In this document: positions 3,402 to 54,200 of the stretch, piece by piece | Layout: each line of letters opens with the position of its first letter | Position numbering within the stretch: position 1 is the first letter of the stretch | Assembly: GCA_965215365.1 (NCBI GenBank) | Contig: CBDCDS010000003.1 | Span: 1,312,001 to 1,376,000, forward strand | DNA from: Gammaproteobacteria bacterium | GTDB lineage: Bacteria > Pseudomonadota > Gammaproteobacteria > Eutrophobiales > Eutrophobiaceae | Length of the DNA: 64,000 nucleotides | Direction: 5' to 3' | Program-made: the position numbers and the translations under genes | The notes under the pieces: model-generated | The model's input: the letters and a program-made list of their open reading frames with translations, nothing else | Databases searched by the model: none | Told to the model about the DNA's origin: nothing

Positions 3402-3405
<4 letters not shown>

Positions 3406-5648: not shown

Positions 5649-5675
5649 AAAATTTCACTGGTTATATTTGTGGTA

Positions 5676-7121: not shown

Positions 7122-7240
7122 GACTCTCATATTTGCTGAACCTGGACAGTCTATTGACTTAGGGCGCGCCGCAATGTACGCTGTTGAGCGTAGCAAGGAC
7201 ACTTCAAACTTACATCCACTGTCCTATCGAGAGGTCGGCC

Positions 7241-9684: not shown

Positions 9685-9830
9685 GGCCACCTCTCACAAA
9701 CACGAGGTGGCCGTGCAGTACAAGGATGTGCTGCCATTTTTAGTCACGTAAGTGACTGAAAATGAAGGAAATGAAAAATCATACTTTTTCATTTCCGTCT
9801 CTAAAAATACCACGGAGGGTATTTTTAGAG
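9685..9830 (+). other. Array of five back-to-back stem-loops in an intergenic region
   Basis: Stems at 9685-9712 (9 bp), 9715-9734 (8 bp, one GU), 9735-9764 (13 bp, one GU, GTAA loop), 9767-9796 (12 bp perfect) and 9799-9830 (13 bp perfect). Confidence 0.7.
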
Positions 9831-9868
9831 GTTACTATAAACCCGCAACACTGAGGTAACATGAAGCA

Positions 9869-14350: not shown

Positions 14351-14374
14351 GGTTCATCTCCCTGTAGATGAGGC

Positions 14375-14404
14375 AGCGGTCGCGCGCAAGCGCGGCCGCT
14401 TTTG
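14375..14404 (+). terminator. Rho-independent terminator/attenuator after the TBDR
   Basis: AGCGGTCGCGC-GCAA-GCGCGGCCGCT hairpin ending in a TTTT run. Confidence 0.6.
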
Positions 14405-14433
14405 GGTTGTGTGCAAAAGAGCGTTGCAATCTG

Positions 14434-21200: not shown

Positions 21201-24200
21201 CGTCTGGCATGCCTTCGGTGACGGGCGGCGCTACCAGGATGTGGTCTTCGAGCTGGCCGACAACCCGGCCTTTACTAACTCGACTATCGTCTTTAACAAC
21301 GATGCGGACAATTCTCTGGGGCTCGGTGCCGGGACCGACGCCCCGTACACCGAAACTGCCGCCGGCAAGCAGGTGCTGTTCGCCCCGACCCCGGCCCGTT
21401 ACCTGCGACTATGGTCACAGGGCAATACCGTCAACGATGCCAACCACTTAGTGGAAGTGGAAGTCTATGGCACCGGTCACGGCACGGCGACCGCCACGCT
21501 CAGCGCCTCGAGCACCGCGCCCGGGGATCTCCGCGCGGCGATAGACGGCCACCCCGACACCGCCATCGATCTCGGCACCGGCCCACAGTACTTACAGCTT
21601 GACTTAGGCACCCCTCGGCAGGTGAACAGCTTAGTCGTGCTGCGCGAGGGGGACTTGCGCGCCTACCGCAACGTGGTCTATCAGTTATCGAACGACGCCG
21701 ACTTCGCCGACACAGTGACCACGGTGTTTCACAACGACTATGACGCGGTGCACGGCTTGGGCCTCAAAGAGCCGTCCCAAGGCGAGTATGCCGAGACGCC
21801 CAACGGCCACTATGTGCGCTTTGCGCCCCGCCCGGCGCGCTATGTGCGCCTGTATTCCAACGGCTCAGACCGCGACCGCCACAACCGCTATCACGAAGTA
21901 CTGGTGGGCACCGAGCATGCGACCCGGTTGCCCACACCGACGCCGGCCTGGGCACCGGCCGAATCAGCGCAGGCCGACAACACGGCGCGGGCCGACAACG
22001 CAGCGCAGCAGGGCGCCCCGCCCGGCGCCCCAATCCCCGGCCCGGCGGCGGGCGGCGCCGGACTGGGCGCGCGGGCGTTGCTGGGGCCGCGCCAGGATCC
22101 CCCTGGGAAGCTGGTGAGTAACACCGGCGAGGTTGCGAGCAAGACCTTCCGAAACCACATCGCGACAAAATTCACAACGGGCAACTACAGGCGGGGCTAC
22201 GTGATTTCGTCGGTCGGTGTACACCTCGGCTCAGCCTCCCTGCCCTTAGGAACCAGCATTCCCCTGACCGTTAAAATTTTGCGGGGCAGCAGAAACCCCG
22301 GCACTAATGTGGTGGCCGAGCTGGGGGCGCCGGACCGTCTCACTGAGAATGCGGTCAACACCTTTACCGCGCCTGCAAACACAGTGCTGGCCGCCAACAC
22401 GACCTACTTCCTTAGTGTGTCGCCGAAGGGCCTATTAACACGAGCCAACATCCAAGTATCCGCGACCACCTCTGACAGCCAGACGGGTGCGACGGGTTGG
22501 AGCATTGCCAACAGCAGTCGCACCAGCACAAGGGTGCGTGGCAGAGATATCTGGCAGGATGACAACAGCTCTCTCATGTTTGTGATCAAGGGCATCAGCG
22601 CCCCCTTGCGCAAACCCAAGGGTTTTAAGGCAACGCCAGGCAACAGGAAGGTGACGCTGACCTGGACTAACCCGTCCGATAGCACCATCACCAAGTATCA
22701 GTATCGCCAAGGCACGGGCACGACCGTCACCTGGGGCGAGTGGACAAACATTCCCAGAAGTTCGGCCACCACCACCTCACACACCGTGACCGGCCTGGAC
22801 AACGGCACGGCCTACAGCTTTGAAGTGCGCGCCGTGGTCGACACGGAGATCGGTCTGGCCTCGGATGCCGTGACGGCCACGCCGGGCGTCCCCTTGAACT
22901 TCGTCACCTGGCACCTACCCCGTGAAGTGCTTTATTTGAAGGATGCGCCGATATTGGCACCGACGAGACTGCCCCGGGCCGGCAACAACGTGGGCACGGT
23001 GACCTATGCCTTAACACCGGCGCTGCCGACGGGCCTGCAATGGGACGCTAAGGAGCGCACGATTTCAGGCACCCCCACGGTGAACCAGGCGCGCACGCAA
23101 TACACCATGACGGCGACCGAACCTTCAAATGCGAACGCTGTCGACGGCGTCTACACCTTCCACCTGACGGTGGCGGCCGAGGATAACAAGCCCACCTTCG
23201 GCAGTGAGACGCAGGCCGACCTGTTACTGGCAAGAGGCACGGCCATGCCTACCGTCACACTGCCGAAAGCCACGGGCGGTGATGGCACGCTGACCTATCA
23301 GTTATTGCCGTTGAAGTGGAGTAACATGGGCTACAACCAGAACGCGGACCGGGAGAGCAACCAACCCCTGGACTATGCCGGGGTAGCGAACCTGCCGGCA
23401 GGGCTCAGCTTCAATACCACCACCCGCGCGCTGTCGGGCACGCCCACAGCGAACTGGACACGCGCGCTATATACCTTAGTGGCCACGGACGCTGATGGCG
23501 ACACGGCGGGCCTGAACTTCCATGTGGCGGTGGCAAACGCGTTAACCCCGGCCACCAGTTCCAGCACTCTGGAGGTCTGGACGGACGATGCGCTGAGCCA
23601 TGTCAACCGTAATGCCACTAAGCCGGGCTCGCCGTCGACCCGCATTGACTTACATGCGGCGCGCAATGAATATGAGAACGGCCAGATAGTGCTGCGTAGT
23701 GATGCGGATTTGACCATTACCGAAGTGGCGTTTAGTGACCTCACCAGCGGCAGCAACACGATTGCTAAGGCCCACCTTGACTATCGGTTTGTGGAATACC
23801 ACGTGCCGGTGATGCCGACCCGGGCGACCGATTTGCTCTACGCGGCCACTGTTCGTCCTAATCGCCCCGACCCCCTGTCCAATGCTCGCGCCATTATCGT
23901 ACCGGCGAACGTCACCCAACCCATCTTAGTGACGGCGTATGTCCCCAAGGGGCAGGCGGCGGGGACTTATACCGGCGATGTGACGGTCAAGGTCAAGACG
24001 GCGCAGGGAAATCAGACCAAGACCGTGCCCTTGAGCGTGAAGGTCTATGCGGTGCAGATTCCCGATGCCAAGGACAGCGAGTTCTTACAGTACAACTGGA
24101 CCGAGACGAACATGTACTCCGTGCGCAATGATGAGGACATGGGGTTTTCGTACTACGGGATTTATAAGTACTCCGATGACTGGTGGGGCTTAATGGGCAA

Positions 24201-27200
24201 CATGGCCGACACCATGTCCAAGCATCGTCAGAACATGACCATTGCCTGGACGGTGGCACTGCTGCGCGACGGCGGCAGTAAGGCCAAGTCCGATGGCACG
24301 TATGACTGGCAATGGGGGCTGTTCGATAAGTTCATCGACACTTATAACCAGGGTGGCATGTCGCATTTCGGTGGTGGGCATTTGTCGTTCCACTGGGAGG
24401 GCGGCAAACCGCGCAGTTGGGATGCTGCCCGGCATTTCGAGGTGGCGATGCTCGCGCCTGACGCGAACGGTGAGACGCGCATCGGCGGTGCCGTGGTGCC
24501 GACCTCGACGAGCAATGCCGACGACGAGCGCACGGTGGCCCGGGATTGGCTCAATGCTTATCTGCCGGAGCTGGACAAACATATTGCTGCGAAGGGCTTA
24601 CTCGGCGGTGCCAAGCTGCGCGATAAGTGGTTCCAACATCTCGGTGATGAGCCGGGCGGCAGCACTGATATCCAACAATGGGCGTATATGGCAGACACGC
24701 TCAAGGACAACGCGCCCAAGATACGTAATTTAGATGCAGCTCAGACCAGCGTCGGGGGGCTTTTGCAGGCTGCCAATGCGGCCCGGGTGAATGCCTGGAG
24801 TCCTTACCTGATCGAGTTTGACAAGCGCAAAACCTTATTTGCTGACCAGCAGGCGCTCGACAAGCCGGTGTTTGTCTATGTGATGTACACCCCCAGGGAC
24901 AAGAACGACTATAACCGCCTGTTCAACAACCATCTGGTATCGACTTCCACGCTGTATTGGTATTACTTCCGTCATAACTTAGACGGCAATCTGCACTGGG
25001 CACTGAACGTCTGGTCTATTACCGCGGGAGATGCTTCCAAGGGCGATACCCACATCGTCTATCCGGACATCGGCGGGCGCACCCTGCGCTCATCGCTGCG
25101 CTATGAAGCCGAGCGCGGCGGGCTGGAGGACTTAGAGCTATTAAAGCTGTATAAGAAGACCTCTGCCAGCGCGGCTAATACACTGGCTGAGAAGCTCACC
25201 ACCACGACCCGCACCAACCACAACAAGGATGTGTCAACGTACCGCACTGTGCGTGCAGAGTTGCTGAGTGCCGCCACCAATCCCCCAGAGCTGTCGATTA
25301 ACAGCGTAGCGGTATTGGAGGGCCGCACCGCGCGTTTTACGGTGAGCCTGTCGAAGGCGCACACCGCCAACGTCACGGTGCAGGCGGCCACCTCGAACGG
25401 CACGGCCACGGCGGGCAGCGACTACACGGCTAAGACGGCCACACTGACCATTGCCGTCGGCAGCACGAGCGCCACGTTTGACGTGGCCACCAGCGCTGAC
25501 GACGAAGTAGAAGGCACCGAGACCTTCGAGGTGACCCTGAGCGGCCCAACGAATGCCACGCTCAAGGAGGACGGTGACACCGGAGTCGGCGCCCTGCACG
25601 ACGGCGACGGCGGGACGCGCTTCGATGTGCCTCAGAATCACTCGGACGTCACCCGTGGTGGGGGGGCTTGGACGTGGGATTTTGGCCGCAACCCCCCCAA
25701 ATTTGACAACTACGGTAAAAATGGCTATGTCACCGGAGCTAACGGCGCCTATCTGGAATACACCTTTACCGGCACCGGGGTGGACTTTATCTCACAGGTT
25801 GGCCCTAACCACGGGGATGTGGATATCCATATCGACGGCACCAAGATGGCTACCGTGAACTTGTACCAAAGCGGCAGCGTCACCGGCAAGTACGTGGCCT
25901 ACAGCGTGCGCGACCTGACCGCCGGGGAGCATACCATCCGGGTGACTAAGCGGTCTGCTACCTGGCTCATCGTGGACGCCTTCTCTGTGTACGGCGCGCC
26001 CTTGAGCTTCGTTACTTGGCACCTGCCCCCTGAGGTGCGCTATGTGAAGGATACGGCGATATTGGCGCCGACCCGACTGCCTCGGGTCGGCAACGGCGCG
26101 GGGACGGTGACTTATGCCCTGACACCGACACCGCCGACAGGCCTGCAATGGGACGCTAAGGAACGCACGATTTCAGGCACTCCCACGGTGAATAAAGCGC
26201 GCACGCAATACACCATGACGGCGACCGATGCGATAGGTGGTACCAAGGCCTTTACCTTCCACCTGACGGTGGCTAACAAGGACAACAAGCCGACCTTCGG
26301 CACTGCCAAGCAAACCGACCTGTTGCTGAAGAAGGACTCAGCTAGGAGCGTGACACTACCGGCGGCCACGGGCGGCGATGGCACGTTGACTTATCAGTTA
26401 TTGCCGTTGAAGTGGAGTAACATGGGCTACAACCAGGGGGTACGAGAGAACAACCAACCCCTGGACTACGCCGGGGTGGCCAACCTGCCGGCGGGTGTGA
26501 GCTTCGATGCCACCACCCGCGTCCTCTCGGGCACGCCCACGGCGAACTGGACGCGCGCCTTGTACACGTTGGTGGCCACGGATGCCGACGGCGACACGGC
26601 GACGCTGAGCTTCCATGTGGCGGTAGTGACCGCACTGACCCCGGCTACCGGCTCGAGCACCCTGGAGGTATGGACGGACGATGCGCTCAAGCATGTCAAC
26701 CGCGATGCCACCAAGCCGTCCTCGCCGTCAACGGCCATCGCCTTACATGCGGCGCGCAATGAATATGAGAGCGGCCAGATAGTGCTACGCAGTGATGCGG
26801 ATTTGACCATCACCGAGGTGGCGTTTGACGACCTCACCGATGGCAGCAACACGATTGCTAAGACCCACCTTGACTACCGGTTTGTAGAATACCACGTGCC
26901 GGTGATGCCGACTCGGACGACCAAGCTGCTCTACCCGGCTGCTAATCGCCCCGATCCGCTATCGAATGCCCGCTCGATTGTGGTGCCGGCGAACGTCACC
27001 CAACCCATCTTAGTGACGGCATACATCCCCAAGTGGCAGGCGGCGGGCACTTATACCGGCGATGTGACGGTGAAGGTCAACACGGTCCAGGGGGTTAAGA
27101 CCAAAACTGTGTCGCTGAGCGTCAAGGTGTACCCCGTAGGGATCCCCGATGCCAAGGACAGCGAGTTCTTGCAGTACAACTGGACCGAGACGAACATGTA

Positions 27201-30200
27201 CTCCATCCGCAATGAAGAGGACATGGGGCGCTCGTACTACGGGATTGACAAGTACTCCGATGACTGGTGGGGCCTGATGGAAAACATGGCCGATACCATG
27301 TCGACGTATCGTCAGAACATGGCCATTGCCTGGACGGTGGGCTTGCTGCGCGATGGCGGCAGTAAGGCCAAGGCCGATGGCACTTATGAGTGGGACTGGC
27401 GGCTGTTCGACAAGTACATCGAGACTTATAACCAGCGCGGCATGAGCCACTTCGGCGGCGGGCATTTGGCATTGCACTGGACCGGCAAGCCCGGGAGTTA
27501 CAATGGTTATATTGACTTCCAAGTGGCGCTGCTGTCTCGTGACGCAGACGGTGAGACGCGCATCGCCGGTGCCCTGGTGCCGACCTCAATAGCCAATGCT
27601 GACGAGCGCACCGTTGCCCGCGATTGGTTGAATGATTATTTGCCAGAATTGGACACCCATATTGCGGCCAAGACCTTAGTGGGCGGCGCCAAGCTGCGCG
27701 CGCAATGGTTTCAGCATATCGCCGATGAGCCGCACGCGGGCAGCGAAATCGAACAATGGGTGTATATGGCGGACGCACTCAAGGCCAAGGCGCCGAACAT
27801 GCGTAACCTTGATGCGGCGCTGCATGGCATACCGGAACTGGTGAAGAACGCAGACAAGGTGACGGCCTGGAGTCCTTACATCGACAGCTTTGGCCAGAGA
27901 AAAGACTTCTTTGCCCAACAGCAAGCGGCCGGTAAGCCGGTGTTTATCTACGTGTTGGAGATTCCCAGCGGGCAGAATGACCTCAACCGCCTGTTCAAAA
28001 ACTACCTGGTATCGACCACCACGCTCTATTGGCATTACTTCCGCCATAATGCGGACGGCAATCTACACTGGGCGCTGAACGTCTGGTCCATTGCGTCGTC
28101 GAGCGGCAATGAAGGCGATACCCACATCGTGTACCCGGACATTGGCGGGCGCACCCTGCGCTCATCGTTGCGCTATGAAGCCGAGCGGGCCGGGTTGGAG
28201 GACTTGGAGTTGTTAAAGCTTTACAAGGCGGAATCTTCGGACGCGGCCAACACGCTGGCCGACAAGCTGTTAAGCCCCCCAGGCGCCGAGAACCGACAAG
28301 ACCATAATAAAAATTCGTCAGAGTACCGCGCCGTGCGTCAGGAGCTGCTGGAGGCGCTGCCAGCGGTACCGCTGCCGCCGTTGCCTAAGCCCACGGGTTT
28401 TACGGTGACTCCGGGCGGAGGTGAAGTGACGCTCGCCTGGTCTGAGCCTGCCGATAACGGTATCACCAAATATCAGTTCCGTCAGGGCGACGGCGTCCCC
28501 GTTACCTGGGGCGATTGGACGGACATTCCCAACAGCGATGCCGATACCACCTCGCACACGGTGACCGGCCTGACCAGCGGCGTGGCCTACAGCTTCGAGG
28601 TGCGCGCCGTGAGGGGGGCAACGTCCGGCTCGGCCACGGCTGCCTTGACCGTCATGCCGACAGCCCCCCAACTGGTGAGTAACACCGGCGAAGCTGTTGC
28701 GAGCAAGACCTTCCGAAACCACATCGCGACAAAATTCAGAACGGGCAAAGGCAGTGCGGGCTACGTGATTTCGTCGGTCGGTGTACGCCTCGGCTCAGCC
28801 TCCCTGCCCTTAGGAACCAGCATTCCCCTGACCGTTAAAATTTTGCGGGGCAGCAGAAACCCCGGCACTAATGTGGTGGCCGAGCTGGGGGCGCCGGACC
28901 GTCTCACTGAGAATGCGGTCAACACCTTTACCGCGCCTGCAAACACAGTGCTGGCCGCCAACACGACCTACTTCCTTAGTGTGTCGCCGAAGCTCCCATT
29001 AACACGAGCCTACATCCAAGTATCCGCGACCACCTCTGACAGCCAGACGGGTGCGACGGGTTGGAGCATTGCCAACAGCAGTCGCACCAGCACAAGGGTG
29101 CGTGGCAGAGATATCTGGCAGGATGACAACAGCTCTCTCATGTTTGTGATCAAAGGTACCAACCACAGCAATGCGAAACCCACAGAGCTTTCAGCGATAC
29201 CGGGTAACGGCAAGGTGACGCTCAGTTGGGCTGATCCCTCTGATATTACCATTACCAAGTATCAGTATCGCCAAGGCACGGGCACGACCGTCACCTGGGG
29301 CGAGTGGACAAACATTCCCAGCAGTTCGGCCACCACCACCTCACACACCGTGACCGGCCTGGCCAACGGCACGGCTTACAGCTTTGAAGTGCGCGCCGTG
29401 GGAGGGGAGGTGACCGGTCCGGCATCAGATGTTGTGTCCGCCACACCGGTCGTGCCCACTCTGAACTTCGTCACCTGGCACCTGCCCCCTGAGCTGCGCT
29501 ATGTGAGGTATAGGGCTATCCTGGCGCCGACCCGGCTGCCGCGGATCGATGGCGGCACGGGCACGGTGACTTATACCTTAACACCGGCGCTGCCCACGGG
29601 CCTGAAGTGGGACGCTAAGGAACGCACGATTTCAGGCACCCCCACCGCAGATAAGGCGCGCACGCAATACACCATGACGGCGACCGATGCGGCCAGTCGC
29701 ACTGCCACTTATACCTTCCACCTGACGGTCGCCGCCGCCGACAAAAAGCCCACCTTCGGCAGTAAGACGCAGGCCGACCTGCTGCTGAAAAGAGGCACGG
29801 CCATGCCTACCGTCACGCTACCGGCGGCCAGTAGCGGCGACGGCACGCTGACCTATCAGTTGTTGCCATTGCGGTGGACGAATCAGAGCTATAACAAAGG
29901 AGTGCGGGAGACCAACGCACCCTTGGACTACGCCGGGGAGGCCAACCTGCCGGCCGGGCTCGGTTTCAACACCGGCACGCGGGTACTTTCAGGCACTCCC
30001 ACCGAGAATTGGACACGCGCCCTTTATACCTTAGTCGCCACAGACACCGATGGCGACACGGCGGCGCTGAACTTCCATGTGGCGGTGGTGGATGCGTTGG
30101 CCCCGGCCACCAGCTCTAGCGCTTTGAATATATGGACGGACGATGCGCTCAACCGTGTGAACCGCGACGCCACCCAGCCGAACTCGCCGTCCAAGGCCAT

Positions 30201-33200
30201 TGCCTTACATGCGGTGCGCAACGAGTATGAGAGCGGCCAGGTAGTCCTGCGCAGCAATGCGGACTTGACCATTACCGAGGTGGCGTTTACCGACCTCACC
30301 AGCGGCAGCAACACGATTGCCAAGGCTAATCTTAACTACCGGTTTGTGGAATACCACGCGCCGCTGATGACCACCCGGGCGGCGCCCAAGCTGATTTACC
30401 CGGCTTCTGAGAAGCCGGATCCGCTGTCGAATGCCCGTACCATTGTGGTGCCGGCGAACGTCACCCAACCCATCTTAGTGACGGCGTATGTCCCCAAGGG
30501 GCAGGCGGCGGGGACCTACACCGGCACGGTGACGGTCAAGACCACCCAGGGGGACAAGACGGTGTCTTTGAGCGTCAAGGTCTATCCGGTGGAGATTCCC
30601 GATGCCAAGGACAGCGAGTTTAAGCAGTACAACTGGACCGAGACCAACATGTACTCCATCCGCAATGAAGAGGACATGGGCTTTTCGTACTACGGGATTG
30701 ACAAGTACTCTGATGATTGGTGGGAATTGATGGAGAACATGGCCGATACCATGTCGACGTATCGCCAGAACATGGCGATTGTGTGGGCGGTGGGTCTGCT
30801 GCGCGATGGCGGCAGTAAGGCCAAGGCCGATGGCACTTATGAGTGGGACTGGCGGCTGTTCGACAAGTACATCGAGACTTATAACCAGCGCGGTATGAGC
30901 CACTTCGGCGGCGGGCATTTGTCGTTGCACTGGACCGGTAAGCCCGGGAGTAACAATGTGCTTAATAATTTTCAGGTGATGCGCTTAGCGCCCGATGCCG
31001 ATGGTGAGACGCGCCTTGCAGGCGGGTTTGTGCCGGTCTCGGCGGACGGTACCCCGCCTGCTTACACGACCGCCAAAGACACACAGGCCACCACCGCGGC
31101 CGATGCCGAAGCGAGCAAGGCCGCCGGGAAGTGGTTGGAGGCTTACCTGACGGCCTTGAACACCCGCGCTTCGGCCACAACCCTAGCCAACGGCAAGAAG
31201 CTGGTCGATCACTGGTTTCAACATCTCGGCGATGAGCCGGAAGGCTCGCAGGGGCCGCAATGGGCGTATCTGGCCGATCAGGTCAAAGCCCATGCACCGC
31301 GCATGCGCAACATCGATGCGATCGGGTCGTCGGGTGCGAAAGTCCTGGTACAGGCTGCGAATGCGGCCAGGGTGACGGCCTGGAGTCCGTTCATTGCTGA
31401 GATTGATAACAGAAGAATGTTCTTCGCCGGCCAGCAACTCGCTGGCAAGCCGGTGTTTGCCTACATTGCGCTGGTGCCCGTGCACCCGTCCTTTAACCGC
31501 ATGTTCGCCAACGAACTGATCTCGACTTCCACGCTGTATTGGTATTGGTTCCGCCATAATCTCGACGGCTATTTGCACTGGGCGTTGAACGTGTGGTCGC
31601 TGGGGACGGGCAGTGGTTATGAAGGCGATACCCACATTGTCTATCCGGACATTGGCGGGCGCACGCTGCGCTCGTCGTTGCGCTATGAGGCCGAGCGCGG
31701 CGGGCTGGAGGACCTGGAGATATTGAAGCGCTATCAGGCGGCGGCGCCGGGCGCGGCCTATGCGCTGGCCGATGAGTTGGTCGACCCGGACGGCATCGGC
31801 GGTCTGATTACTCACACCAAGGATGTATCGTTGTACCGCACGGTGCGCACAGAGTTGTTGGAGAAAGCCGCCGCACAGGTCCCGGAAGTCGCGGTGGCGC
31901 CCCCGGTGCTGTCGATTAACAGCGTGGCGGTCACGGAGGGGGCGCCAGCGTATTTTGCGGTGCGCTCATCGCAGGTCCACACGCAACACTTACAGGTGAC
32001 GGTGGCCACCTCGAACGGCACGGCGACGGCGGGCAGCGACTACACGGCGACGACGACCACGCTGACCATCCCGGCCGGGAGCACGAGCGTCATCTTCGCG
32101 GTGCCGACGACCACCGACAGCACCTCGGAGTCCGCCGAGACGTTCACGGTGACTCTGTCCAACCCCACCGGCGGCGCCACCATCGACCCCGACGCCGGCG
32201 TGGGCACGGGCGCCCTGTACGATCCGGGCGGCACGCTCGTCAATGATGATGCCTCTGCCATTACCTACCAGTATGCAGGCGGTGACACCCGCGGCCAGGC
32301 CTGGCGGTCGGTGTCTCGCTCTGGCAGCAGCTACAATAATGACGTCCACATCACCCCGAGACCGGGCGCGTACTTTGACTATACGTTTACCGGCACCGGC
32401 GTAGACCTTATCTCGGAAACCGACTCCCGCTACGCGGAGGTTGACATCTACCTGGACGGGAACAAAGTGGCGCGCGCATCGCTGGTCAGCGCCAGCCGCG
32501 CCGGGAAAGTGCTGGTCTACAGCGTGCGCGGGTTGAGCGCAGGGAGCCATACCATCAAAGGTGTAAGGGTGGGGGTTAGCGTTAACAAGAATTTTGTGGT
32601 AGATGGCTTTTTGGTGCATACGAGCGATGCCTTTTTTGCCGATAGGTTAAAGCCCACCGGCTTAACTGCCACGCCGGGCGACAAGCAGGTGACGTTGAGC
32701 TGGCTCGATCCGTCCAACAGCGCCATCACCAAGTACCAGTATCGCCAGGGCGCCGGCACGACCGTCGTCTGGGGTGGCTGGACCGACATCGCCAACAGTG
32801 ACAACACCACCACCTCGCACACCGTGACGGGCTTAACCAACGGCACGGCCTACAGCTTTGAAGTGCGCGCCGTGGTCGGGACGGCAACCGGCGCCGCCTC
32901 AGGTGCCGTGAGCGCGACACCGGCCACCCCCAGCACCCTGCCAGAGCTGTCGATTAACAGCGCGACGGCATTAGAAGGCCGCACGGCAAGTTTTACGGTC
33001 ACCCTGTCACGCGCCCACACCGCCGATGTCACAGTACAGGCGGCCACCTCGAACGGCACGGCCACGGCAGGCAGTGACTACACGGCGAAGACGGCGACAT
33101 TAACCATTGCAACCGGCAGCACCAGCGCCACGTTTGACGTGGTCACCACCGACGATGCGGCGGTGGAAGGCACCGAGACCTTCGAGGCGACCTTGGCTAA

Positions 33201-42200: not shown

Positions 42201-45200
42201 GTGGGGGCTGTTCGATAAGTTCATCGACACTTATAACCAGGGTGGCATGTCGCATTTCGGTGGTGGGCATTTGTCGTTCCACTGGGAGGGCGGCAAACCG
42301 CGCAGTTGGGATGCTGCTCGGCATTTCGAGGTGGCGATGCTCGCGCCTGACGCGAACGGTGAGACGCGCATCGGCGGTGCCGTGGTGCCGACCTCGACGA
42401 GCAATGCCGACGACGAGCGCACGGTGGCCCGGGATTGGCTCAATGCTTATCTGCCGGAGCTGGACAAACATATTGCTGCGAAGGGCTTACTCGGCGGTGC
42501 CAAGCTGCGTGATAAGTGGTTCCAACATCTTGGCGATGAGCCGGGCGGCAGCACTGATATCCAACAATGGGCGTATATGGCAGACACGCTCAAGGCCAAG
42601 GCGCCCAAGATACGTAATTTAGATGCAGCCCAGACCAGCGTCGAGGGGCTTTTGCAGGATGCCAATGCGGCCCGGGTGAATGCTTGGAGTCCTTACCTGA
42701 TCGAGTTTGACAAGCGCAAAACCTTATTTGCCCAACAGCAACAAGCCGACAAGCCGGTGTTTGTCTATGTGATGTACACCCCCAGGGACAAGAACGACTA
42801 TAACCGCCTGTTCAACAACCATCTGGTATCGACTTCCACGCTGTATTGGTATTACTTCCGCCATAACTTAGACGGCAATCTGCACTGGGCACTGAACGTG
42901 TGGTCCATCGGGCCGGCGGGCGGCTCTGAAGGCGATACCCACATCGTCTATCCGGACATCGGCGGGCGCACGCTGCGCTCATCGCTGCGCTATGAAGCCG
43001 AGCGCGGCGGGCTGGAGGACTTGGAACTGTTGAAGCTGTACAAAGCGACCTCTGCCAGCGCGGCTAATACACTGGCTGAGAAGCTCACCACCACGACCCG
43101 CACCAACCACAACAAGGATGTGTCAACGTATCGCACCGTGCGTACCGAGTTGCTGGAGGCTGTGGCCGCCGCCCTACTGCCTAAACCCACGGGTTTTACG
43201 GCGACTCCGGGCGACGAGCAGGTGAAGCTCACCTGGGCTGACCCTGCCGATAACAGAATCACCCGCTACCAGTATCAGCAGCGGGTCGGGAACGCCGATT
43301 GGGGCTCGTGGATTAACATCTCTGGCGCCAACGCGACCACGACCACCTTTACGCGCGCCGGCCTGACCAACGGCACGCAATACAGCTTCCGCATCCGCGC
43401 CGCAAGGGGGCCGGTAGCCGGTGCGGCTTCGGATGTCGTGAGCGCCACACCAATGCCCCTCCCCGAGCTGTCGATTAACAGCGTGGGAGTGACGGAGGGA
43501 GCGGCGGCGTATTTTACGGTGAGCCTGTCACGCGCCCACACCGCTGACGTCACGGTGCGGGCGGCCACCTCGGCCGGCACGGCCACGGCGGGCAGCGACT
43601 ACACCACGAAGACGGCCACGCTGACTATTGCGGCAGGGAGCGCCAGCGCCACCTTCGCGGTACCGACGACCGCCGACAATACTGCCGAGTCTGGCGAGAC
43701 GATCAAGGTGACCCTGTCCAATCCCGCCGGCGGCGCCACCATCAAGTCCGGCGGCGGTGTGGGTACGGTCACCCTGTACGATCCGGGGAGCGAGTTCGTC
43801 AATTATAATGCCCCTGCTGTCAGCTATCAGAATGGCAGTAACACAACAGGCTTGGCATGGTCTTTTGGCACTTTCATCGGGGGAGACTCCAACAGCTACG
43901 TTACCTCTAGGCCGGGCGCTTATTTTGAATATACATTTACCGGCACCGGCGTGGATTTTATCTCGGAGACTAACTCTGACCACGGTGAGGTTGACATCTA
44001 CCTTGACGAGACCAAGGTAGCGCGCGTGTCGCTGCACAGTGCCACCCTAACCGGCAAGGCGCTGGCCTACAGTGTGCGCGGGTTGCCTTTCGGGGAATAT
44101 ACCATCAAGGGTGTGAAGGTGGGGAGCGATGCCAGCAAATATTTAGTAGTGGATGGCTTTTTTGTTTATGGGACGCTCAAACCCACGGGGCTTACCGCGG
44201 CGGCGGGCGACGGGCAGGTGGTGCTTACCTGGGACGACCCCTCCAACGATGCCATCACCGGCTACCAGTATCGCCAGGGTACACCCCTGTTCTTGCCTTG
44301 GTGGTATTTTGTGTTCGACCCTTATTTAGAACCTGCCCGCTGGGAGGATTGGACCGACATTCCTAGCAGCTCGGCCGCCACCATTTCGCACCTTGTGACC
44401 GGCCTGACCAACGGCACGCAGTACTATTTCCAGGTGCGCGCCGTGGTCGGGGCAACGACCGGCGCGCCCTCAAATGCCGCATCCGCCAGACCACGGACGG
44501 ACGGCCTGAACTTCATCACCTGGCACCTGCCTCCTGAGTTTCGGTATGTGAATGGCGAGGCGATATTGGCGCCGACCCGGCTGCCGCGGCTCGATGGCGG
44601 CACGGGCACGGTGACTTATACCTTAACACCGGCGCTACCCACGGGCCTGAAATGGGACGCTGAGGAGCGCACGATTTCAGGCACCCCCGCCGCAGATATG
44701 GGTCGCGCGGTATACACCATGAAGGCAACCGATGCGAACGATGAGTCCGCCGCCTACACCTTCCACCTGACCGTAGCGGCCACCGACAACAAGCCCAGCT
44801 TCGGCACGACGCAGGCCGATTTGCTATTAGTCAAGGACGCGGCCATGACCGCCGTCACACTACCGGCGGCCACCGGCGGCGACGGCACGCTGACCTATCA
44901 GTTACTGCCGTTGAAGTGGAGTAACCTGGGCTACAACCAGGGAGAACGGGGGAACAACCAACCCCTGGACTACGCCGGTGTGCCCAACCTGCCGGCGGGT
45001 GTGAGCTTCAATGCCAGCACGCGCGAGCTGTCGGGCAGGCCCACGGCGAACTGGACGCGCGCCTTGTACACGTTGGTGGCCACAGATGCCGATGGCGACA
45101 CGGCGGGTCTGAACTTCCACGTGGCGGTGGCGAACGCACTGACCCCGGCTACCGGCTCGAGCGCCCTGGAGGTCTGGACGGATGATGCGCTCAACCATGT

Positions 45201-48200
45201 CAACCGCGATGCCACCCGGCCGAACTCGCCGTCCACCCGCATTGACTTACATGCGGTGCGCAATGAGTATGAGAGCGGCCAGATAGTGCTACGCAGTGAT
45301 GCGGATTTGACCATCACCGAGGTGGCGTTTAGTGACCTGACCGATGGCAGCAACACGATTGCTAAGACCCACCTTGACTACCGGTTTGTAGAATACCACT
45401 CGCCGGTGATGCCGACCCGGGGAGATACGCTACTTTATCCGGCCTCTAATCGTCCCGACCCCTTGTCCAACGCCCGTTCGATTGTGGTGCCGGCGAACGA
45501 CACCCAACCGATACTGGTGACGGTGTATGTCCCCAAGGGACAGGCGGCGGGCACTTACGCCGGCACGGTGATGGTGAAGGTCAACACGGCGCAGGGGGTT
45601 AAGACTAAAACCGTCCCGCTGAGCGTGAAGGTCTATGCCGTGGAGATCCCCGATGCCAAGGACAGCGAGTTCAAGCAGTACAACTGGACCGAGACCAACA
45701 TGTTCTCCATCCGCAACGAGGAGGACATGGGCTTTTCGTACTACGGGATTGACAAGTACTCTGATGATTGGTGGGAATTGATGGAGAACATGGCCGATAC
45801 CATGTCGACGTATCGCCAGAACATGGCGGTATCCTGGACGGTGGGTCTGCTGCGCGACGGCGGCAGCAAGGCCAATGCTGACGGCACGTATAAGTGGGAC
45901 TGGCGGCTGTTCGACAAGTACATCGACACCTATAACCAGGGTGGCATGAGCCACTTCGGCGGCGGGCATTTATCGTTCCACTGGAACGGGAGGCCGGGGA
46001 GTTTCAGTGGTAAGCATGACTTCCATGTGATGCAGTTGTCTCGCGACTCAGATGGCGAGACGCGTCTTAGCGGCGCATTGGTGCCGACCTCGGCGACCGA
46101 TGCCACTACCACGCGCAAGGCCGCCGCGGACTGGTTGGATGCCTACTTGCCGGAATTGGACAAACAAGTCAAGGCCAAGACCTTGGTCGGCGGCGTCAAG
46201 CTGCGCGACCAATGGATCCAGCACATGGGGGATGAGGCGGGTGCAGGTGCACAATCCCAACAATGGGCTTATATGGCGGACAAGGTCCAATTTCATGCAC
46301 CTGGTATGCTGACCATGGATGCAGCATATAGTCTTGGTTTGCACGACCATGCAACGAAAGTAAAAGCCTGGAGTCCTTGGATCAACATTTTTGATGAATA
46401 CAAGGATTTCTATATTGAACAACAAGCCGCCAACAAGCCGGTGTTTGCTTACTACATGTGGTATCCCCGACATCCGTTAATGAACCGCATGTTCGCTAAC
46501 CATTTGATCGCGACCTCAATGATCTACTGGTATTACTTCCGCCACAATCTGGCCGGCAATCTGCACTGGGCGCTGAACGTGTGGTCTCTCCCGTTGACAG
46601 AAACCAAAGACGACAACGGAATCGGTGCCGAAGGCGATACCCACATCGTCTATCCGGACGTCGGTGGGCGCACTCTGAGGTCATCGCTGCGCTATGAAGC
46701 TGAGCGTAACGGGCTGGAGGACCTGGAGATCTTGAAGCGGTACAAGGTGGGGGCACCGAGCGCGGCCAATACGCTGGCCGACGGACTCATAAACCCCAAC
46801 GGCGTCACCGCGGTCCCACGTTCCGTCAACACCCTTGCCGAATACAACACAAATGTATCAACGTACCGCACCGTGCGTGCCGAGTTGCTGGAGAAAGCAA
46901 CTAAAGCCCTCGCCGGCCTGCCGGAGCTGTCGATTAACAAAGTGGCGGTATTGGAAGGCCGCCCGGCGCGCTTCACGGTGAGTTTGTCGGCGGCGCACAC
47001 TGCCGATGTCACGGTACAGGCGGCCACCTCGAACGGCACGGCCACGGCAGGCAGCGACTACACGGCGAAGACGGCGACATTAACCATTGCAACCGGCAGC
47101 ACCAGCGCCACGTTTGACGTGGTCACCACCGACGATGCGGCGGTGGAAGGCACCGAGACTTTCAAGGTAATCCTGACTAACCCGTCTAAGGCCACGCTCA
47201 AAAAAGACGGCGACACCGCCACCGGCAGCGTTTACGACGGCGACGGCGGGACGCTCTTCGATGTGCCCGAGACCGACTCGTCTGTCAGCCTCACCAACGG
47301 CACCAACCCTGGGGGTGTGTGGTACTGGAATAAGACGCGTGACGCCAGCCTTAATAACCACAATGACAATGCCTATGGCGTGGGTGATAGCACCGGTGGC
47401 GGTAATGGCGCGTATCTCGAATACACCTTTACCGGCACCGGGGTGGACTTTATCTCACAGAGAGGCCCGAACCACGGTGATGTGGACATCCATATCGACA
47501 ACACCAAGGTGGCCACCGTGAGCTTGTACCAAAGCGGCAGCGCCGCCGGCAATTACGTCGCCTACAGCGCGCGCGACCTGACCCCCGGGGAGCACACCAT
47601 CCGGGTGACTAAGAAGTCCGGCAACTACCTGATCGTGGATGCTTTTACTGTGTATGGAATCCCCTTGAGCTTCGTCACCTGGCACCAGCCTTATGATCTG
47701 CGTTACGTGAAGGATACGGCGATATTGGCGCCGGTGCGGCTGCCGCGGGTGAGTGGCGGTACGGGTATGGTGGTCTATACCTTGTCGCCGGAACTGCCGA
47801 CGGGACTGAAATGGGACGCCAAGGAGCGCACCATCTCAGGCGCCCCCACTGTGAACAAGAGGTACACGCGCTACACCATGACGGCGACCGACGAAGCCGG
47901 TGTTACCGCCACCTATCCCTTCAACCTGACGGTGGCCGATACGGATAACAAGCCCAGCTTCGGCACCAAGACGCAGGCCGACCTGCTGTTAGTCAAAGAC
48001 ACGGCCATGACCGCGGTGACGTTGCCGGAGGCCAGTGGCCTCCACCGCCCGCTGACCTATCAGTTATTGCCGTTGAAGTGGAGCAACCTGAGCTACAACC
48101 AGAACAAGGACCGGGAGAGCAACCAACCCTTAGACTACGCCGGGGTGGCCAACCTGCCGGCGGGGCTCAGCTTTAATGCCGGCACACGGGTGCTGTCGGG

Positions 48201-51200
48201 CACACCCACTGAGAACTGGACACGCGCGCTCTATACCTTAGTCGCCACAGACACCGATGGCGACACGGCAGCGCTGAACTTCCATGTGGCAGTGGTGACC
48301 GCACTGACCCCGGCCACCGGCCCGAGTACCCTGGAGGTGTGGACGGACGATGCGCTCAAGCATGTCAACCGAGATGCCACCAAGCCGAACTCGCCGTCGA
48401 CAGACATCGCCTTACATGCGGCGCGCAATGAGTACGAGAACGGCCAGATAGTGCTACGCAGTGATGCGGATTTGACCATTACCGAAGTGGCGTTTAGTGA
48501 CCTCACCAGCGGCAGCAACACGATTGCCGCCAAGGATAACCTTGACTACCGGTTTGTAGAATACCACTCGCCGGTGATGCCGACCCGGGCGACCGATGTA
48601 CTCTACGCGGCCAATAATCGCCCTGATCCCTTATCCAATGCCCGCTCGATTGTGGTGCCGGCGAACGTCACCCAACCCATCTTAGTGACGGCGTATGTCC
48701 CCAAGGGGCAGGCGGCGGGCACTTATGCCGGCGATGTGACGGTCAAGACCACCCAGGGGGACAAGACCGTGCGGCTGAGAGTGAAGGTCTATGCGGTAGA
48801 GATTCCCGACGCTAAGGCCAGCGAGTTCTTACAGTACAACTGGACGGAGACGAACATGTACTCCGTGCGCAATGATGAGGACATGGGCTTTTCGTACTAC
48901 GGGATTTATAAGTACTCCGATGACTGGTGGGACTTAATGGGCAACATGGCCGACACCATGTCCAAGCATCGTCAGAACATGACCATTGCCTGGACGGTGG
49001 CACTGCTGCGCGACGGCGGCAGTAAGGCCAAGTCCAATGGCACGTATGAGTGGGAGTGGGGGCTGTTCGATAAGTTCATCGACACTTATAACCAGGGTGG
49101 CATGTCGCATTTCGGTGGTGGGCATTTGTCGTTCCACTGGGAGGGCGGCAAACCGCGCAGTTGGGATGCTGCTCGGCATTTCGAGGTGGCGATGCTCGCG
49201 CCTGACGCGAACGGTGAGACGCGCATCGGCGGTGCCGTGGTGCCGACCTCGACGAGCAATGCCGACGACGAGCGCACGGTGGCCCGGGATTGGCTCAATG
49301 CTTATCTGCCGGAGCTGGACAAACATATTGCTGCGAAGGGCTTACTCGGCGGTGCCAAGCTGCGTGATAAGTGGTTCCAACATCTTGGCGATGAGCCGGG
49401 CGGCAGCACTGATATCCAACAATGGGCGTATATGGCAGACACGCTCAAGGACAACGCGCCCAAGATACGTAATTTAGATGCAGCTCAGACCAGTGTCGGG
49501 GGGCTTTTGCAGGCTGCCAATGCGGCCCGGGTGAATGCTTGGAGTCCTTACCTGATCGAGTTTGACAAGCGCAAAACCTTATTTGCTGACCAGCAGGCGC
49601 TCGACAAGCCGGTGTTTGTCTATGTGATGTACACCCCCAGGGACAAGAACGACTATAACCGCCTGTTCAACAACCATCTGGTATCGACTTCCACGCTGTA
49701 TTGGTATTACTTCCGCCATAATGTGGACGGCAATTTGCACTGGGCGCTGAACGTCTGGTCCATCGGGCCGGCGGGCGGCTCTGAAGGCGATACCCACATC
49801 GTCTATCCGGACATCGGCGGGCGCACGCTGCGCTCATCGCTGCGCTATGAAGCTGAGCGCGGCGGGCTGGAGGACTTGGAGCTATTAAAGCTGTACAAGA
49901 AGACCTCTGCCAGCGCCGCCAACACACTGGCCGAGAAGCTCACCGGTACGGGTGATCGCACCAACCACAACAAGGATGTGTCAACGTACCGCACTGTGCG
50001 TGCAGAGTTGCTGGAGGCTGTGGCGCAGGGGCAGGCGCCCACAGGGCTGACTGCAACGCCAAGCGACAAGCAGGTGACGCTCACCTGGGTCGCCTCCTCC
50101 AACAGCGCCATCACCAAGTACCAGTATCGCCAAGGCACCGGCAGTCCCGTCAAATGGGACGATTGGACGGACATTCCCAGCAGCTCGGCCACCACCACCT
50201 CACACACTGTGAAGGGCCTGACCAACGGCACACAGTACAGTTTTGAGGTCCGCGTCGTGGTCAGGACGGCAACCGGCTTGGCCTCGGACATCGTGTCCGC
50301 TACGGCGGGAGTTTACGAACTATCGATTAACAACGTGGCGGTATTAGAAGGCCGCACGGCGCGTTTCACGGTGAGCTTATCTGCGGCATACACCGCCGCC
50401 GTCACAGTACAGGCGGCCACCTCGGATGGCACGGCCACGGCGGGCAGCGACTACACGGCCAAGACGGTGACATTAACCATTGCGACCGGCAGCACCAGTG
50501 CCACGTTTGATGTGGCCACCAGCGCTGACGACGCAGTAGAAGGCACCGAGACCTTCGAGGTGGCCCTGACCGGCCCGACCAATGCCACGCTCAAGACAAA
50601 CAGTGACACCGGCACGGGCACCCTTTACGACGGCGATGGCGGGACGCTCTTCGATGTGCCTGAGACTGACTCGTCTGTCAGCCGCAACGACGGGGGCGGG
50701 AGAGAGTGGTATTGGAATGGGAATCGTTCGGGCTTTAATAACTACGGAGACAATATCTACGCCATTGGCAGTAGCAGTGGTGCCGGTAACGGCGCCTACC
50801 TGGAATACACCTTTACCGGCACCGGGGTGGACTTTATCTCACAGATTGGTCCTAACCACGGTGATGTGGACATCCATATCGACGGTACCAAGGTGGCCAC
50901 CGTGTCCTTGTACCAAAGCGGCAGCACCACGGGCAAACACGTGGCCTACAGCGTGCGCGACCTGACCCCCGGGGAACACACCATCCGGGTGACCAAGCAG
51001 TCCGGTAAATACCTCGTGGTGGATGCTTTTACGGTGTATGGCACCCCCTTGGACTTCATCACCTGGCACTTGCCCCCTGAGCTGCGCTATGTGAAGGATA
51101 CGGCCATCCTGGCCCCGACCCGACTGCCTCGGGTCGGCAACGGCGCGGGGACGGTGACTTATGCCTTATCACCGGTGCCACCCACGGGCCTGAAGTGGGA

Positions 51201-54200
51201 TGCTAAGGAACGCACGATTTCAGGCACCCCCACCGCAGATAAGGCGCGCACGCAATACACCATGACGGCGACCGACAAGGCTAGTAGTACCGCCACCTAT
51301 ACCTTCCACCTGACGGTAGCGGCCGCGGATAACAAGCCCACCTTCGGCAGTAAGACGCAAGCCGACCTGTTACTGGAGAAGGATGCGCTGATGACCGCGG
51401 TCACACTGCCGGTGGCTACGGGCGGCGATGGCACGCTGACCTATCAGTTATTGCCGTTGAAGTGGAGTAACATGGGCTACAACCAGGGGGTACGAGAGAA
51501 CAACCAACCCTTGGACTACGCCGGGGTGGCCAACCTGCCGGCGGGTGTGAGCTTCAATGCCACCACGCGCGTCCTCTCGGGCACACCCACGGCGAACTGG
51601 ACACGCGCGCTCTATACCTTAGTCGCCACGGATGCCGACGGCGACACGGCGACGCTGAGCTTCCATGTGGCGGTGGTGCCCGCACTGACCCCGGCCACCG
51701 GCTCGAGCGCCCTGGAGGTATGGACGGATGATGCGCTGAGCCATGTCAACCGCGATGCCACCAAGCCCAATTCCCCGTCGACGGACATTGATTTACATGC
51801 GGCGCGCAATGAATATGAGAGCGGCCAGATAGTGCTGCGCAGCGATGCGGATTTGACCATTACCGAGGTGGCGTTTGACGACCTGACCGATGGCAGCAAC
51901 ACGATTGCTAAGACCCACCTTGACTACCGGTTTGTAGAATACCACGTGCCGGTGATGCCGACCCGGACGACCCAGCTGCTCTACCCGGCCGATAATCGTC
52001 CTGATCCGTTGTCCAATGCCCGCTCGATTGTGGTGCCGGCGAACGTCACCCAACCCATCTTAGTGACGGCGTATGTCCCCAAGGGGCAGGCGGCGGGGAC
52101 GTACACCGGCGATGTGACGGTCAAGGTCAAGACGGCGCAGGGAAATCAGACCAAGACCGTGCCCTTGAGCGTGAAGGTCTATGCGGTGCAGATTCCCGAT
52201 GCCAAGGACAGCGAGTTCTTACAGTACAACTGGACGGAGACAAACATGTACTCTATCCGCAATGAAGAGGACATGGGGCGCTCGTACTACGGGATTGACA
52301 AGTACTCCGATGACTGGTGGGACTTAATGGGGAACATGGCCGACACCATGTCCAAGCATCGTCAGAACATGACCATTGCCTGGACGGTGGCACTGCTGCG
52401 CGACGGCGGCAGTAAGGCCAAATCCGATGGCACGTATGAGTGGGACTGGCGGCTGTTCGATAAGTTCATTGACACTTATAACCAGCGCGGCATGACCCAC
52501 TTCGGCGGCGGGCATTTGGCGATGCGCTGGAACGGGCAGCCGGGGAGTTACGATGCGGCCTTGGATTACCAGGTGGGGTTGCTGTCTCGCGACGAAAACG
52601 GTGAGACGCGCATGGGTGGCGAGAAGATTCCGCTCTCGATATTATTTGAATTTTTGTATCCCGACGCTCGGGCCTGGCTGGATGCCTATCTGCCGGAATT
52701 GGACACCCATATTGCGGCCAAGACCTTGGTCGGCGGTGCTAAGCTGCGCGATAAGTGGTTCCAACATCTCGGTGATGAGCCGAAGTCGAGTCAACTCCCG
52801 CAATGGGCGTATATGGCGGACATCCTCAAGGGCAACGCGCCCAAGATACGTAATTTAGATGCAGCTCAGACCAGTGTCGGGGGGCTTTTGCAGGCTGCCA
52901 ATGCGGCCCGGGTGAATGCTTGGAGTCCTTACCTGATCGAGTTTGACAAGCGCAAAGACAAATTTGCTAAACAGCAACAGGCCGACAAGCCGGTGTTTGT
53001 CTATGTGATGTACACCCCCAGGGACAAGAACGACTATAACCGCCTGTTCAACAACCATCTGGTATCGACTTCCACGCTGTATTGGTATTACTTCCGCCAT
53101 AACTTAGACGGCAATCTGCACCGGGCGTTGAACGTCTGGTCCATCGGGCCGGCGAGCGGTGCCGAAGGCGATACCCACATCGTCTATCCGGACATCGGCG
53201 GGCGCACCCTCAGGTCATCGCTACGCTATGAAGCTGAGCGCGGCGGGCTGGAGGACTTGGAGCTGTTGAAGCTGTATAAGGCGACCTCTGCCAGCGCGGC
53301 CAACACACTGGCCGAGAAGCTCACCACCACGACCCGCACCAACCACAACAAGAATGTATCGAAGTACCGCACCGTGCGTACCGAGTTGCTGAAGGCTGTG
53401 GCTGTGGCCGTCCCCGCCGTCACCGCCACCGCCACCGATACCGCCGCCACCGAAGACGACACCAGCGCCACGGCCACTTTCACGGTGGTACTCGACACCG
53501 AGCCGTCCGCCGACGTCACCGTCACCGTCACCGCGCCCACGGGCTTAGATCTCGACGGCCCGGACAGCGCGAAGACCTTCACCTCCAGTGAAGACCTCAC
53601 CTTCACCGATAGCACCTGGAGCACCGCCCAGACGGTCACCGTGCGCGCCCCCGACGACAGCACCGACAGCCCCAGTCAACGGGAACTGACCGTCACCTAC
53701 GCCGCCACCTCGACCGACACCGATTACAGTGGCCTTAACGGCACTGCCGCCACCGTCACCGTCACGGATAATGACGCCACTGAGGTGACCTTGGCCGGTA
53801 GCGCCGGGGATGTCACCGAGGGCGGCACCAAGGAGTTCACGGTCAAGTTAAACCGCGGCTTGGTCAACGGCGAGGTCCTGCCTGTGCCGCTGACGGTTGC
53901 CACCGGTAATGGCACGGCGACTCGCAACACCGACTACACAATAGCTTGCCCCAACGCGCCGCCCGTCGGCGTGACGTGTAATGACCTGAACACTGCGACC
54001 ACTCCCACCGTGACCTTCACCGGCCCCTCCACCGGCGCCACCGCCACTGAGATCACCTTGACCCTCACCGCAACGACCGATTCCATCGCCGAAGCTGGCG
54101 GGGAGTCCGTCACCCTTGGCCTCGGCACGCTTAACACCAGCTCTGGCACCGGCTTGGACGGCGGCGCTTTGGGCACCGACAGTCTGGCGGACTTCACCAT

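Follow-up and report, generated by a model that had tools for sequence, protein, structure and literature searches.

We analysed a 64,000-nucleotide stretch, hereafter the window, from the genome of an uncultured gammaproteobacterium (GenBank assembly GCA_965215365.1, contig CBDCDS010000003.1, positions 1,312,001 to 1,376,000; 2.73 Mb in 3 contigs, 97.6 % complete). It contains the larger part of a single giant gene, whose product carries nine glycoside hydrolase family 123 (GH123) modules, designated M1 to M9, of five sequence types. From position 18295 to 63999 the forward strand holds one open frame of 15,235 codons with zero stops, and the whole gene measures 55.5 kb, approximately 2 % of the genome. 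The encoded protein begins with a hydrophobic, signal-peptide-like segment. A Pfam scan of protein pieces identified DUF7402 and F5/8-type-C domains near the N-terminus, together with numerous fn3, He_PIG and Calx-beta domains and the GH123 N-terminal and catalytic domains, whilst a phmmer scan added a second, weaker F5/8-type-C copy. In the phmmer domain map, two He_PIG-like domains precede every catalytic unit, and variable sets of Calx-beta, CE2_N-like and fn3 domains lie downstream of each. No anchoring or secretion signal was identified at the C-terminus.

Membership of GH123 was supported by profile, residue and fold. A genome-wide profile search matched all nine modules to the Pfam catalytic family GH123_cat (PF13320, formerly DUF4091) at 89.1–112 bits, against a cut-off of 23.1. 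M1–M3 scored 90–96 bits in the scan of protein pieces, and the N-terminal β-sandwich (PF22680) was matched before the barrel in all three of these modules, the ones scanned; no NCBIfam model matched a GH123 module. The β-sandwich region (residues 1–163 in the M1 model) is 67 % invariant across the nine. An Asp-Glu (DE) dyad at the end of barrel strand 4 is encoded by the codons GATGAG in every module, and the corresponding D360 and E361 (M1 numbering throughout) are invariant in 55 of 55 aligned sequences. M1 was modelled with AlphaFold from an alignment of 55 sequences, and the model had a predicted local distance difference test score (pLDDT) of 90.4 and a predicted template modelling score (pTM) of 0.93. 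The 18 top-ranked Foldseek chains listed for this model were all of GH123 type (listed ranks 1–21, E 1.6e-45 to 9.4e-27, template modelling (TM) score 0.63–0.87), and the first matches outside the family, GH66 and GH10, scored about 0.3. By homology, the modules are predicted to be β-N-acetylgalactosaminidases (or hexosaminidases).

The original prediction for this locus, made from the letters and open reading frames (ORFs) alone, had sorted the modules into five variants, and an alignment of the nine recovered every motif on which that sorting was based. Type A (M1, M4, M6 and M8) carries DEPGGSTDIQ / VYVMYTPRDKNDYNR, type B (M2) DEPHAGSEIE / IYVLEIPSGQNDLNR, type C (M3) DEPEGSQGPQ / AYIALVPVHPSFNR, type D (M5 and M7) DEAGAGAQSQ / AYYMWYPRHPLMNR and type E (M9) DEPKSSQLPQ. 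The three forms of the loop following an ‘HW’ motif (WEGGKPRSW, WTGKPGSY and WNGRPGSF) were all present, and the proposed span of 23569–53391 agrees with the start of module 1 and the end of module 9. The identity matrix and the tree returned the same five groups. Pairwise identity is 92–95 % within type A, 99.5 % between M5 and M7, 85 % between M9 and type A, and 68–78 % between types. M5 and M7 are separated by three nonsynonymous and zero synonymous changes, too few to test, two of which fall in the strand-2 hairpin on the catalytic face. Two further modules, X1 and X2, occur in a paralogue elsewhere in the genome, a gene of 4,157 codons with a near-identical N-terminus; they have loop variants of their own and are 58 and 80 % identical to M1, respectively. 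In a maximum-likelihood tree, the 11 modules of the genome (M1–M9, X1 and X2) formed a single clade relative to the nearest outside proteins, with support of 100/100. A separate site in the genome holds two distant GH123-like ORFs, one of which has an in-frame TAG inside its catalytic-domain match and may be a pseudogene.

Table 1. Positions of the modules, their variable segments and other features. Positions refer to the window, except those prefixed G000:C3, which are genome coordinates
Feature	Position	Strand	Remarks
M1, type A	23569..25278	+	GH123 N-terminal β-sandwich and (β/α)8 catalytic domain; DE 24646-24651
M2, type B	26662..28362	+	DE 27724-27729; unique central block 27460-28005
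M3, type C	30124..31872	+	DE 31231-31236; 17-residue insertion before helix a3
M4, type A	34324..36027	+	DE 35395-35400; own distal β3-loop segment
M5, type D	38770..40506	+	DE 39835-39840; 7-residue insertion, loop after β8
M6, type A	41479..43167	+	DE 42535-42540
M7, type D	45166..46902	+	DE 46231-46236
M8, type A	48331..50025	+	DE 49390-49395
M9, type E, mosaic	51712..53403	+	DE 52774-52779; Trp 477 to Arg (CGG at 53122-53124)
Divergent central block, M1 (residues 270-455)	24376..24933	+	Equivalents in M2-M9
Variable loop after β3, M1	24376-24522	+	Catalytic face
Variable loop after DE dyad, M1	24649-24672	+	Catalytic face
Variable loop after β5, M1	24742-24780	+	Catalytic face
Variable loop after conserved Tyr, M1	24883-24933	+	Catalytic face
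Variable loop after β8, M1	25018-25041	+	Catalytic face; outside central block
Position 120, M1	23926-23928		NgaLy W115 equivalent
Giant ORF	18295..64000	+	Open at window 3' end; full length 18,502 aa (G000:C3:1330295-1385803)
First 741 residues past signal peptide	18385-20607		Within giant ORF
840-nt tandem array	57476-64000, on to G000:C3:1383597	+	Gene nt 39182-53303; blastn
Antisense ORF	57511..63999	-	Overlaps 840-nt array
TonB-dependent receptor gene	11813..14350	+	
Sulfatase gene	14368..15954	+	Only PF00884 match in genome
GH29 α-L-fucosidase gene	16114..17703	+	Only PF01120 match in genome
Catabolic gene cluster	2212-11326		
Two tandem AAA_22/AAA_16 ATPase genes	5805-8518		
RTX-repeat protein and type II secretion genes	G000:C3:1385883-1395398		Directly downstream of giant gene
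Paralogue with X1 and X2	G000:C3:1680116-1692586		
Two distant GH123-like ORFs	G000:C3:107457-112973		

To locate the differences between types, barrel positions were classed from the secondary structure of the M1 model as strand, helix, catalytic-face loop (following a strand) or bottom loop, and a position with three or more residue types was counted as strongly variable. Amino-acid variation clusters in a single contiguous block (M1 residues about 270–455) extending from the strand-3 loop through the strand-7 loop, and catalytic-face loops 1 and 2 are nearly invariant across the nine modules. Strongly variable positions made up 51 of 149 in the catalytic-face loops versus 42 of 188 in the rest of the barrel, a modest enrichment (odds ratio 1.8, p 0.02). 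Set against helices alone (28 of 113) the difference gave p 0.10, and within the block (43 of 79 in catalytic-face loops, 27 of 73 in helices) p 0.035. The claim that the types differ mainly in predicted active-site loops is thus borne out as a modest enrichment and was otherwise overstated, as the helices of the block vary about equally. The variable loops carry indels and large shifts in charge and aromatic content; the loop after the conserved Tyr, for instance, contains two aromatic residues in type A, none in type B, one in type C and three in type D.

Substrate contacts in characterized GH123 enzymes are made by the DE dyad, a Tyr and a Trp (Sumida et al. 2024, PMC11087588). Residues of these enzymes were transferred to M1 numbering through HMMER alignments and spacing, and the equivalences are accordingly predicted ones. 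NgaDssm W204, BvGH123 W206 and NgaP2 W196 map to W177 (HMMER alignments), the conserved Tyr to Y437 and NgaLy W431 to W477 (alignment or spacing), and BvGH123 W482, NgaDssm L485 and NgaP2 F489 to position 489, which is Ala or Gly in the modules versus mostly bulky residues elsewhere. NgaP2 W298 probably corresponds to W276, the Trp of ‘HW’, judged by spacing from the GGHL motif in a register uncertain by one. W177, W276 and Y437 are invariant in the nine modules and W477 is kept in all but M9. Of 32 family-conserved positions checked, 29 are identical in all 11 modules, the remainder being F252 (V in X1), H338 (R in M3, Q in M5 and M7) and W477 (R in M9). Nine residues reported as conserved in every β-NGA group (NgaLy D95, W115, D327, E328, Y392, G427, W431, Y466 and R478), placed by the same kind of mapping, appear to be kept at eight positions in M1–M8 and seven in M9. 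The variable segments start right after W276 (a probable contact), E361 and Y437, and a few residues past W477. The check proposed with the original prediction comprised alignment, per-site variability, the ratio of nonsynonymous to synonymous substitution rates (dN/dS) and mapping onto a GH123 structure; done here with the secondary structure of the M1 model, the mapping places the beginnings of the variable loops next to predicted catalytic or substrate-contacting residues. A common −1 site with different surroundings is the most economical reading of this residue pattern.

A sliding scan of the codon alignment revealed that nearest-neighbour partners switch along the module. M1 is closest to M4 along one stretch and to M8 along the following one, whilst for its first 100 codons M9 pairs with X2, whose gene lies about 350 kb from the giant gene, and the two share tracts of 100 % identity. 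M2 and M3 are 99 % identical around column 241, and in many windows of 120 nt two different modules match at 100 %. In a polymorphic-site permutation test, 17 of 48 between-type pairs contained identical runs that were reached by none of 1000 permutations. The proportion of synonymous sites that differ between types (pS) is 0.36–0.39 in the flanks versus 0.55 in the central block, and the lower flank values indicate that the conserved framework has been partly homogenised by gene conversion; between types the flanks have been homogenised, while types B, C and D each keep a distinct central block. Type A, given as one type in the original prediction, is not uniform, as the strand-5 loop and the strand-8 loop each have two sub-variants and all four combinations occur across M1, M4, M6 and M8. 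M9 is itself a mosaic, with its own β3 and post-DE loops, type-A loops after β5 and β7, and Arg at Trp 477. Because the types are mosaic, and because M5 and M7 differ at two strand-2 hairpin positions, all nine modules are distinct on the catalytic face.

The genes for the sulfatase and the GH29 fucosidase are neighbours and immediately precede the giant gene; the gene for a TonB-dependent receptor comes before them. As the only sulfatase and the only fucosidase of the genome adjoin the giant gene, the target glycan may be both sulfated and fucosylated, and the arrangement suggests a dedicated system for a sulfated, fucosylated glycan containing N-acetylgalactosamine (GalNAc). Secreted GH123 enzymes have been proposed as depolymerases of bacterial GalNAc-containing exopolysaccharide in a 2026 study (PMC13750104). 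No PL8 lyase was found in the genome. Further upstream, genes for a dehydratase, an amidohydrolase_2 protein, an aldo/keto reductase, an FAA-hydrolase and an aldehyde dehydrogenase form a cluster that, by its gene families, resembles a non-phosphorylative L-fucose or sugar-acid catabolic route; it is interrupted by the two tandem ATPase genes. Downstream of the giant gene are the gene for a 1,051-aa RTX-repeat protein and a type II secretion operon (gspC, D, E, F, G), whose GspE has its nearest named relatives in metagenome-assembled genomes of Gammaproteobacteria.

Two regions of the giant protein outside the modules were also examined. Its C-terminal third contains approximately 17 tandem units of 840 nt (280 aa; He_PIG-type immunoglobulin (Ig) domains), which match themselves at 97.6–98.7 % identity when shifted (blastn); Tandem Repeats Finder, with a longest period of 500, reported nothing for this array. 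The long antisense ORF overlapping it is probably a by-product of the GC-rich repeat. At the other end, the first 741 residues past the signal peptide matched no Pfam or NCBIfam family. Their predicted fold is of low confidence (pLDDT 55.5), and its Foldseek matches to GH101, GH129 and GH36 at a TM score of about 0.3 point weakly, as a lead only, to an α-galactosaminidase/galactosidase-like fold; a protein-atlas search pointed, equally weakly, to the same folds. This region may represent a tenth catalytic domain, distinct in kind from the nine.

The reading we favour, with moderate confidence, is that GH123 paralogues duplicated within one giant secreted protein and reshuffled by gene conversion share a common −1 site, differ in the neighbouring subsites and serve several GalNAc linkage contexts. 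Duplication would have yielded nine paralogous units inside the one protein, which gene conversion would keep reshuffling. Every module would perform the same hydrolysis of β-linked GalNAc (or N-acetylhexosamine) in its −1 site, by the retaining, substrate-assisted mechanism of GH123 (PMC11087588), the modules would differ in the subsites next to it, and a single polypeptide strung on Ig-like domains would cleave GalNAc linkages that occur in several structural contexts within one complex glycan. The repertoire of specificities envisaged in the original prediction is plausible though unproven, and its main rival is relaxed drift of redundant copies. Under drift, which we regard as a tenable but lesser possibility, the copies would provide dosage, avidity or reach along a polymer with one and the same specificity, and the loop differences would be tolerated, near-neutral changes in those parts of older duplicates that are under the least constraint, which conversion has not yet erased.

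Selection was compared between segments by pooling dN/dS over seven representatives (M1, M2, M3, M5, M9, X1 and X2; 21 pairs; bootstrap intervals in brackets). Pooled values were 0.22 for the N-terminal domain, 0.20 for the strands 1–3 region, 0.53 for the loop after strand 3, 1.05 (0.45–2.34) for the eight residues after the DE dyad and 0.79 (0.42–1.34) for the loop after the conserved Tyr. The five variable catalytic-face loops together gave 0.59 (0.43–0.78) and helices a3, a4 and a6 of the central block 0.28 (0.14–0.44), an approximately twofold contrast that is drawn from non-independent pooled pairs and from synonymous sites near saturation (pS up to 0.7). The variable loops evolve faster relative to silent sites than their surroundings do, and positive selection is not demonstrated. 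This difference in rate argues against drift alone, as does the placement of the variable segments, which begin right after catalytic or contact residues and are not spread surface-wide, with catalytic-face loops 1 and 2 left invariant. The loops also contain indels (7 and 17 residues long) and aromatic swaps (from 0 to 3 such residues), which point the same way. Moreover, loops of this kind set specificity in GH123, where extra loops or hairpins from strands 2, 3 and 8 determine whether the enzyme has a cleft and releases oligosaccharides or has a pocket and acts in the exo mode (PMC11087588).

Several observations nevertheless weigh against a repertoire, and a number of them favour drift. 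Whole-module dN/dS is 0.16–0.34 for all pairs with measurable dS, the highest ratio of nonsynonymous to synonymous differences (pN/pS) in 20-codon windows across the five types is 0.75 and every window is below 1, and no segment has dN/dS significantly above 1, the interval for the post-DE residues including neutrality. Tree-based codon site models would be invalid here because recombination is pervasive. Within the block, helices a3, a4 and a6 have diverged as well (fraction variable 0.70–0.88, versus 0.65–0.89 in loops), and the higher pS of the block could mean that it is simply older or less often converted. The four type-A and two type-D modules, six of the nine, form two groups of near-duplicates, which looks like dosage rather than repertoire. 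The ‘highly conserved framework’ that had set off the loops is conserved, but in part through gene conversion and concerted evolution rather than constraint. The equivalence of W276 with the substrate Trp of NgaP2 and BvGH123 is one of motif spacing, and in the MAFFT alignment this residue sits in an insertion at which 45 of 46 outside homologues are gapped. The loops after β4, β5 and β7 would lie on the leaving-group side, because published −2 contacts come from the β1, β2, β3 and β8 loops, but this division into plus and minus subsites follows from barrel geometry without coordinates. On the suggested specificity for different sulfation patterns, NgaDssm prefers 4-sulfated GalNAc, on which it is about twice as active as on unsulfated substrate (Table 1 of PMC11087588), and a sulfatase adjoins the giant gene, yet with a single sulfatase in the genome a repertoire for many sulfation patterns is not favoured. 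In sum, loop position, loop chemistry and dN/dS fit differing specificities, whereas the lack of any ratio significantly above 1, the diverged helices and the four near-duplicates do not.

A bolder version of the repertoire, which we consider unlikely, would make recombination its engine. Conversion among the modules and with the gene 350 kb away would shuffle loop cassettes onto an invariant −1 site and leave each module with its own combination of loops, resulting in a self-diversifying, multi-specific depolymerase for one complex sulfated, fucosylated GalNAc glycan. If true, glycosidase specificities would be evolved and kept inside one gene, a novel strategy for a bacterium whose genome is small (2.7 Mb).

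Less probable again is that some variants, M9 and perhaps others, have lost catalysis and now act as carbohydrate-binding or spacer modules, in which case the division into types would in part mirror that loss. This explanation draws on the Arg of M9 at Trp 477, a single change from TGG to CGG at a position that is Trp in 45 of 46 outside homologues and that corresponds by spacing to NgaLy W431, whose Ala mutant lost most of its activity (PMC11087588). It also draws on position 120, occupied by Leu in M1–M9 and X2 and by Phe in X1, whilst 40 of 46 outside homologues have the Trp described as a strictly conserved structural residue joining the N-terminal domain to the barrel (Sumida et al., PMC11087588). 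Against it, all nine modules retain the DE dyad and Tyr 437 together with most of the remaining conserved positions checked, the frame is open and under purifying selection, and W477R affects one residue of one module.

Public sequencing runs bear on whether the array was assembled correctly. Of the sampled words of a 9.5-kb stretch, a share of at least 0.24 is present in runs of four or more studies; no RNA run was listed among those containing the stretch. Contigs matching the type-specific blocks of M2 and M3 came from runs of three studies and showed 0 to 4 differences in 378–1078 nt; a further contig, from the P2 run and covering M2, had 31 differences and 4 gaps across 1952 nt. Such evidence is independent only in part, since the run that holds the stretch best may be the source sample of the genome itself. 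That the variants are chimeras of mis-assembled repeats is highly improbable: the cassettes of M5 and M7 share 95.5 % identity across 3 kb and the 840-nt array is tandem, so that copy numbers could be wrong, but the 55.5-kb frame has no stop, the genome lies in 3 contigs, the M2 and M3 central blocks were recovered by three studies, and read depth at these blocks is 3–9 times below that of the shared flanks, as expected of unique sequence between repeats. The observation of nine modules of five types is real and non-random, with the refinements set out above.

The array was not encountered elsewhere in the collections searched. The full module was absent from 40 relatives, 22 of them of the same genus, in which partial matches spanned at most 84 residues at E 1e-6 or weaker. 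The genome contig collection held no close relative and one distant locus at 33 % identity, the metagenome contig collection no close relative and one locus at 29 %, and the best outside protein among 1.84 billion representatives was 41 % identical. Fifteen single-locus relatives of 999–2850 aa gave no sign of an array, in a search that does not give copy numbers and did not extend to longer proteins. A literature search found no paper describing tandem GH123 arrays. The array represents a natural experiment on how loops control subsite specificity in GH123, a family for which few natural substrates are known. If the types do differ in specificity, they would constitute a ready panel of β-GalNAc-cleaving enzymes for glycan analysis and would show intragenic recombination building enzyme repertoires. 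If they are alike, the locus is still a striking case of catalytic-domain amplification and concerted evolution.

Among known GH123 enzymes, whose Groups 1–4 CAZy has merged into the one family (Sumida et al. 2024, PMC11087588), the modules appear closest to Group 3. NgaDssm of that group (PDB 8K2J/8K2K), a β-N-acetylgalactosaminidase that releases oligosaccharides or monosaccharides, is the best match in the PDB by sequence (phmmer E 8.8e-34) and, for the M1 model, by fold (8k2j, Foldseek TM 0.81/0.87), with the other solved GH123 structures ranking below. Both combine a β-sandwich with a (β/α)8 barrel and have DE at the end of β4, the conserved Tyr and Trp, and extra β-hairpins after β3. However, the two are only 26 % identical, and NgaDssm has 542 residues and just one module. 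The modules of the giant protein lack the NgaDssm loop carrying H479, have their own ‘HW’ insertion after β3 and have Leu at the structural Trp (position 120). The classical exo-β-N-acetylgalactosaminidases BvGH123 (5L7R/U/V) and CpNga123 (5FQE etc.), as well as NgaP2 and NgaLy (Group 4), share the fold and dyad (Foldseek TM 0.69–0.76) but are just 13–19 % identical to the modules, and in them added β2 and β8 loops close the −2 subsite into a pocket. The β8 loop of the modules is shorter than that of NgaDssm, which suggests an open cleft.

Glycoside hydrolase catalytic domains rarely repeat in the same protein, and nine modules of one family on a chain of 18.5 thousand residues, all distinct on the catalytic face, would be an extreme case. 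For GH48, the CANDy paper (PMC11238990) puts the share of cases in which one protein repeats a catalytic domain at only 2.8 %. Several catalytic domains per chain, with binding or Ig-like modules between them, are also found in Caldicellulosiruptor CelA (GH9-GH48) and Paenibacillus ChiW (two GH18). CelA and ChiW have two catalytic domains each, whereas the giant protein has nine of one family in 18,502 aa. In size, in its long array of Ig-like domains (He_PIG, fn3 and Calx-beta) and in the approximately 17 near-identical 280-aa repeats at its C-terminal end, it appears to resemble giant repetitive bacterial surface proteins, such as RTX-type adhesins and other very large extracellular proteins. 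It differs from these in having a Sec-type N-terminal signal and nine enzyme modules. What is new here is the nine-fold amplification of GH123 modules, shuffled by gene conversion, within one giant secreted protein.

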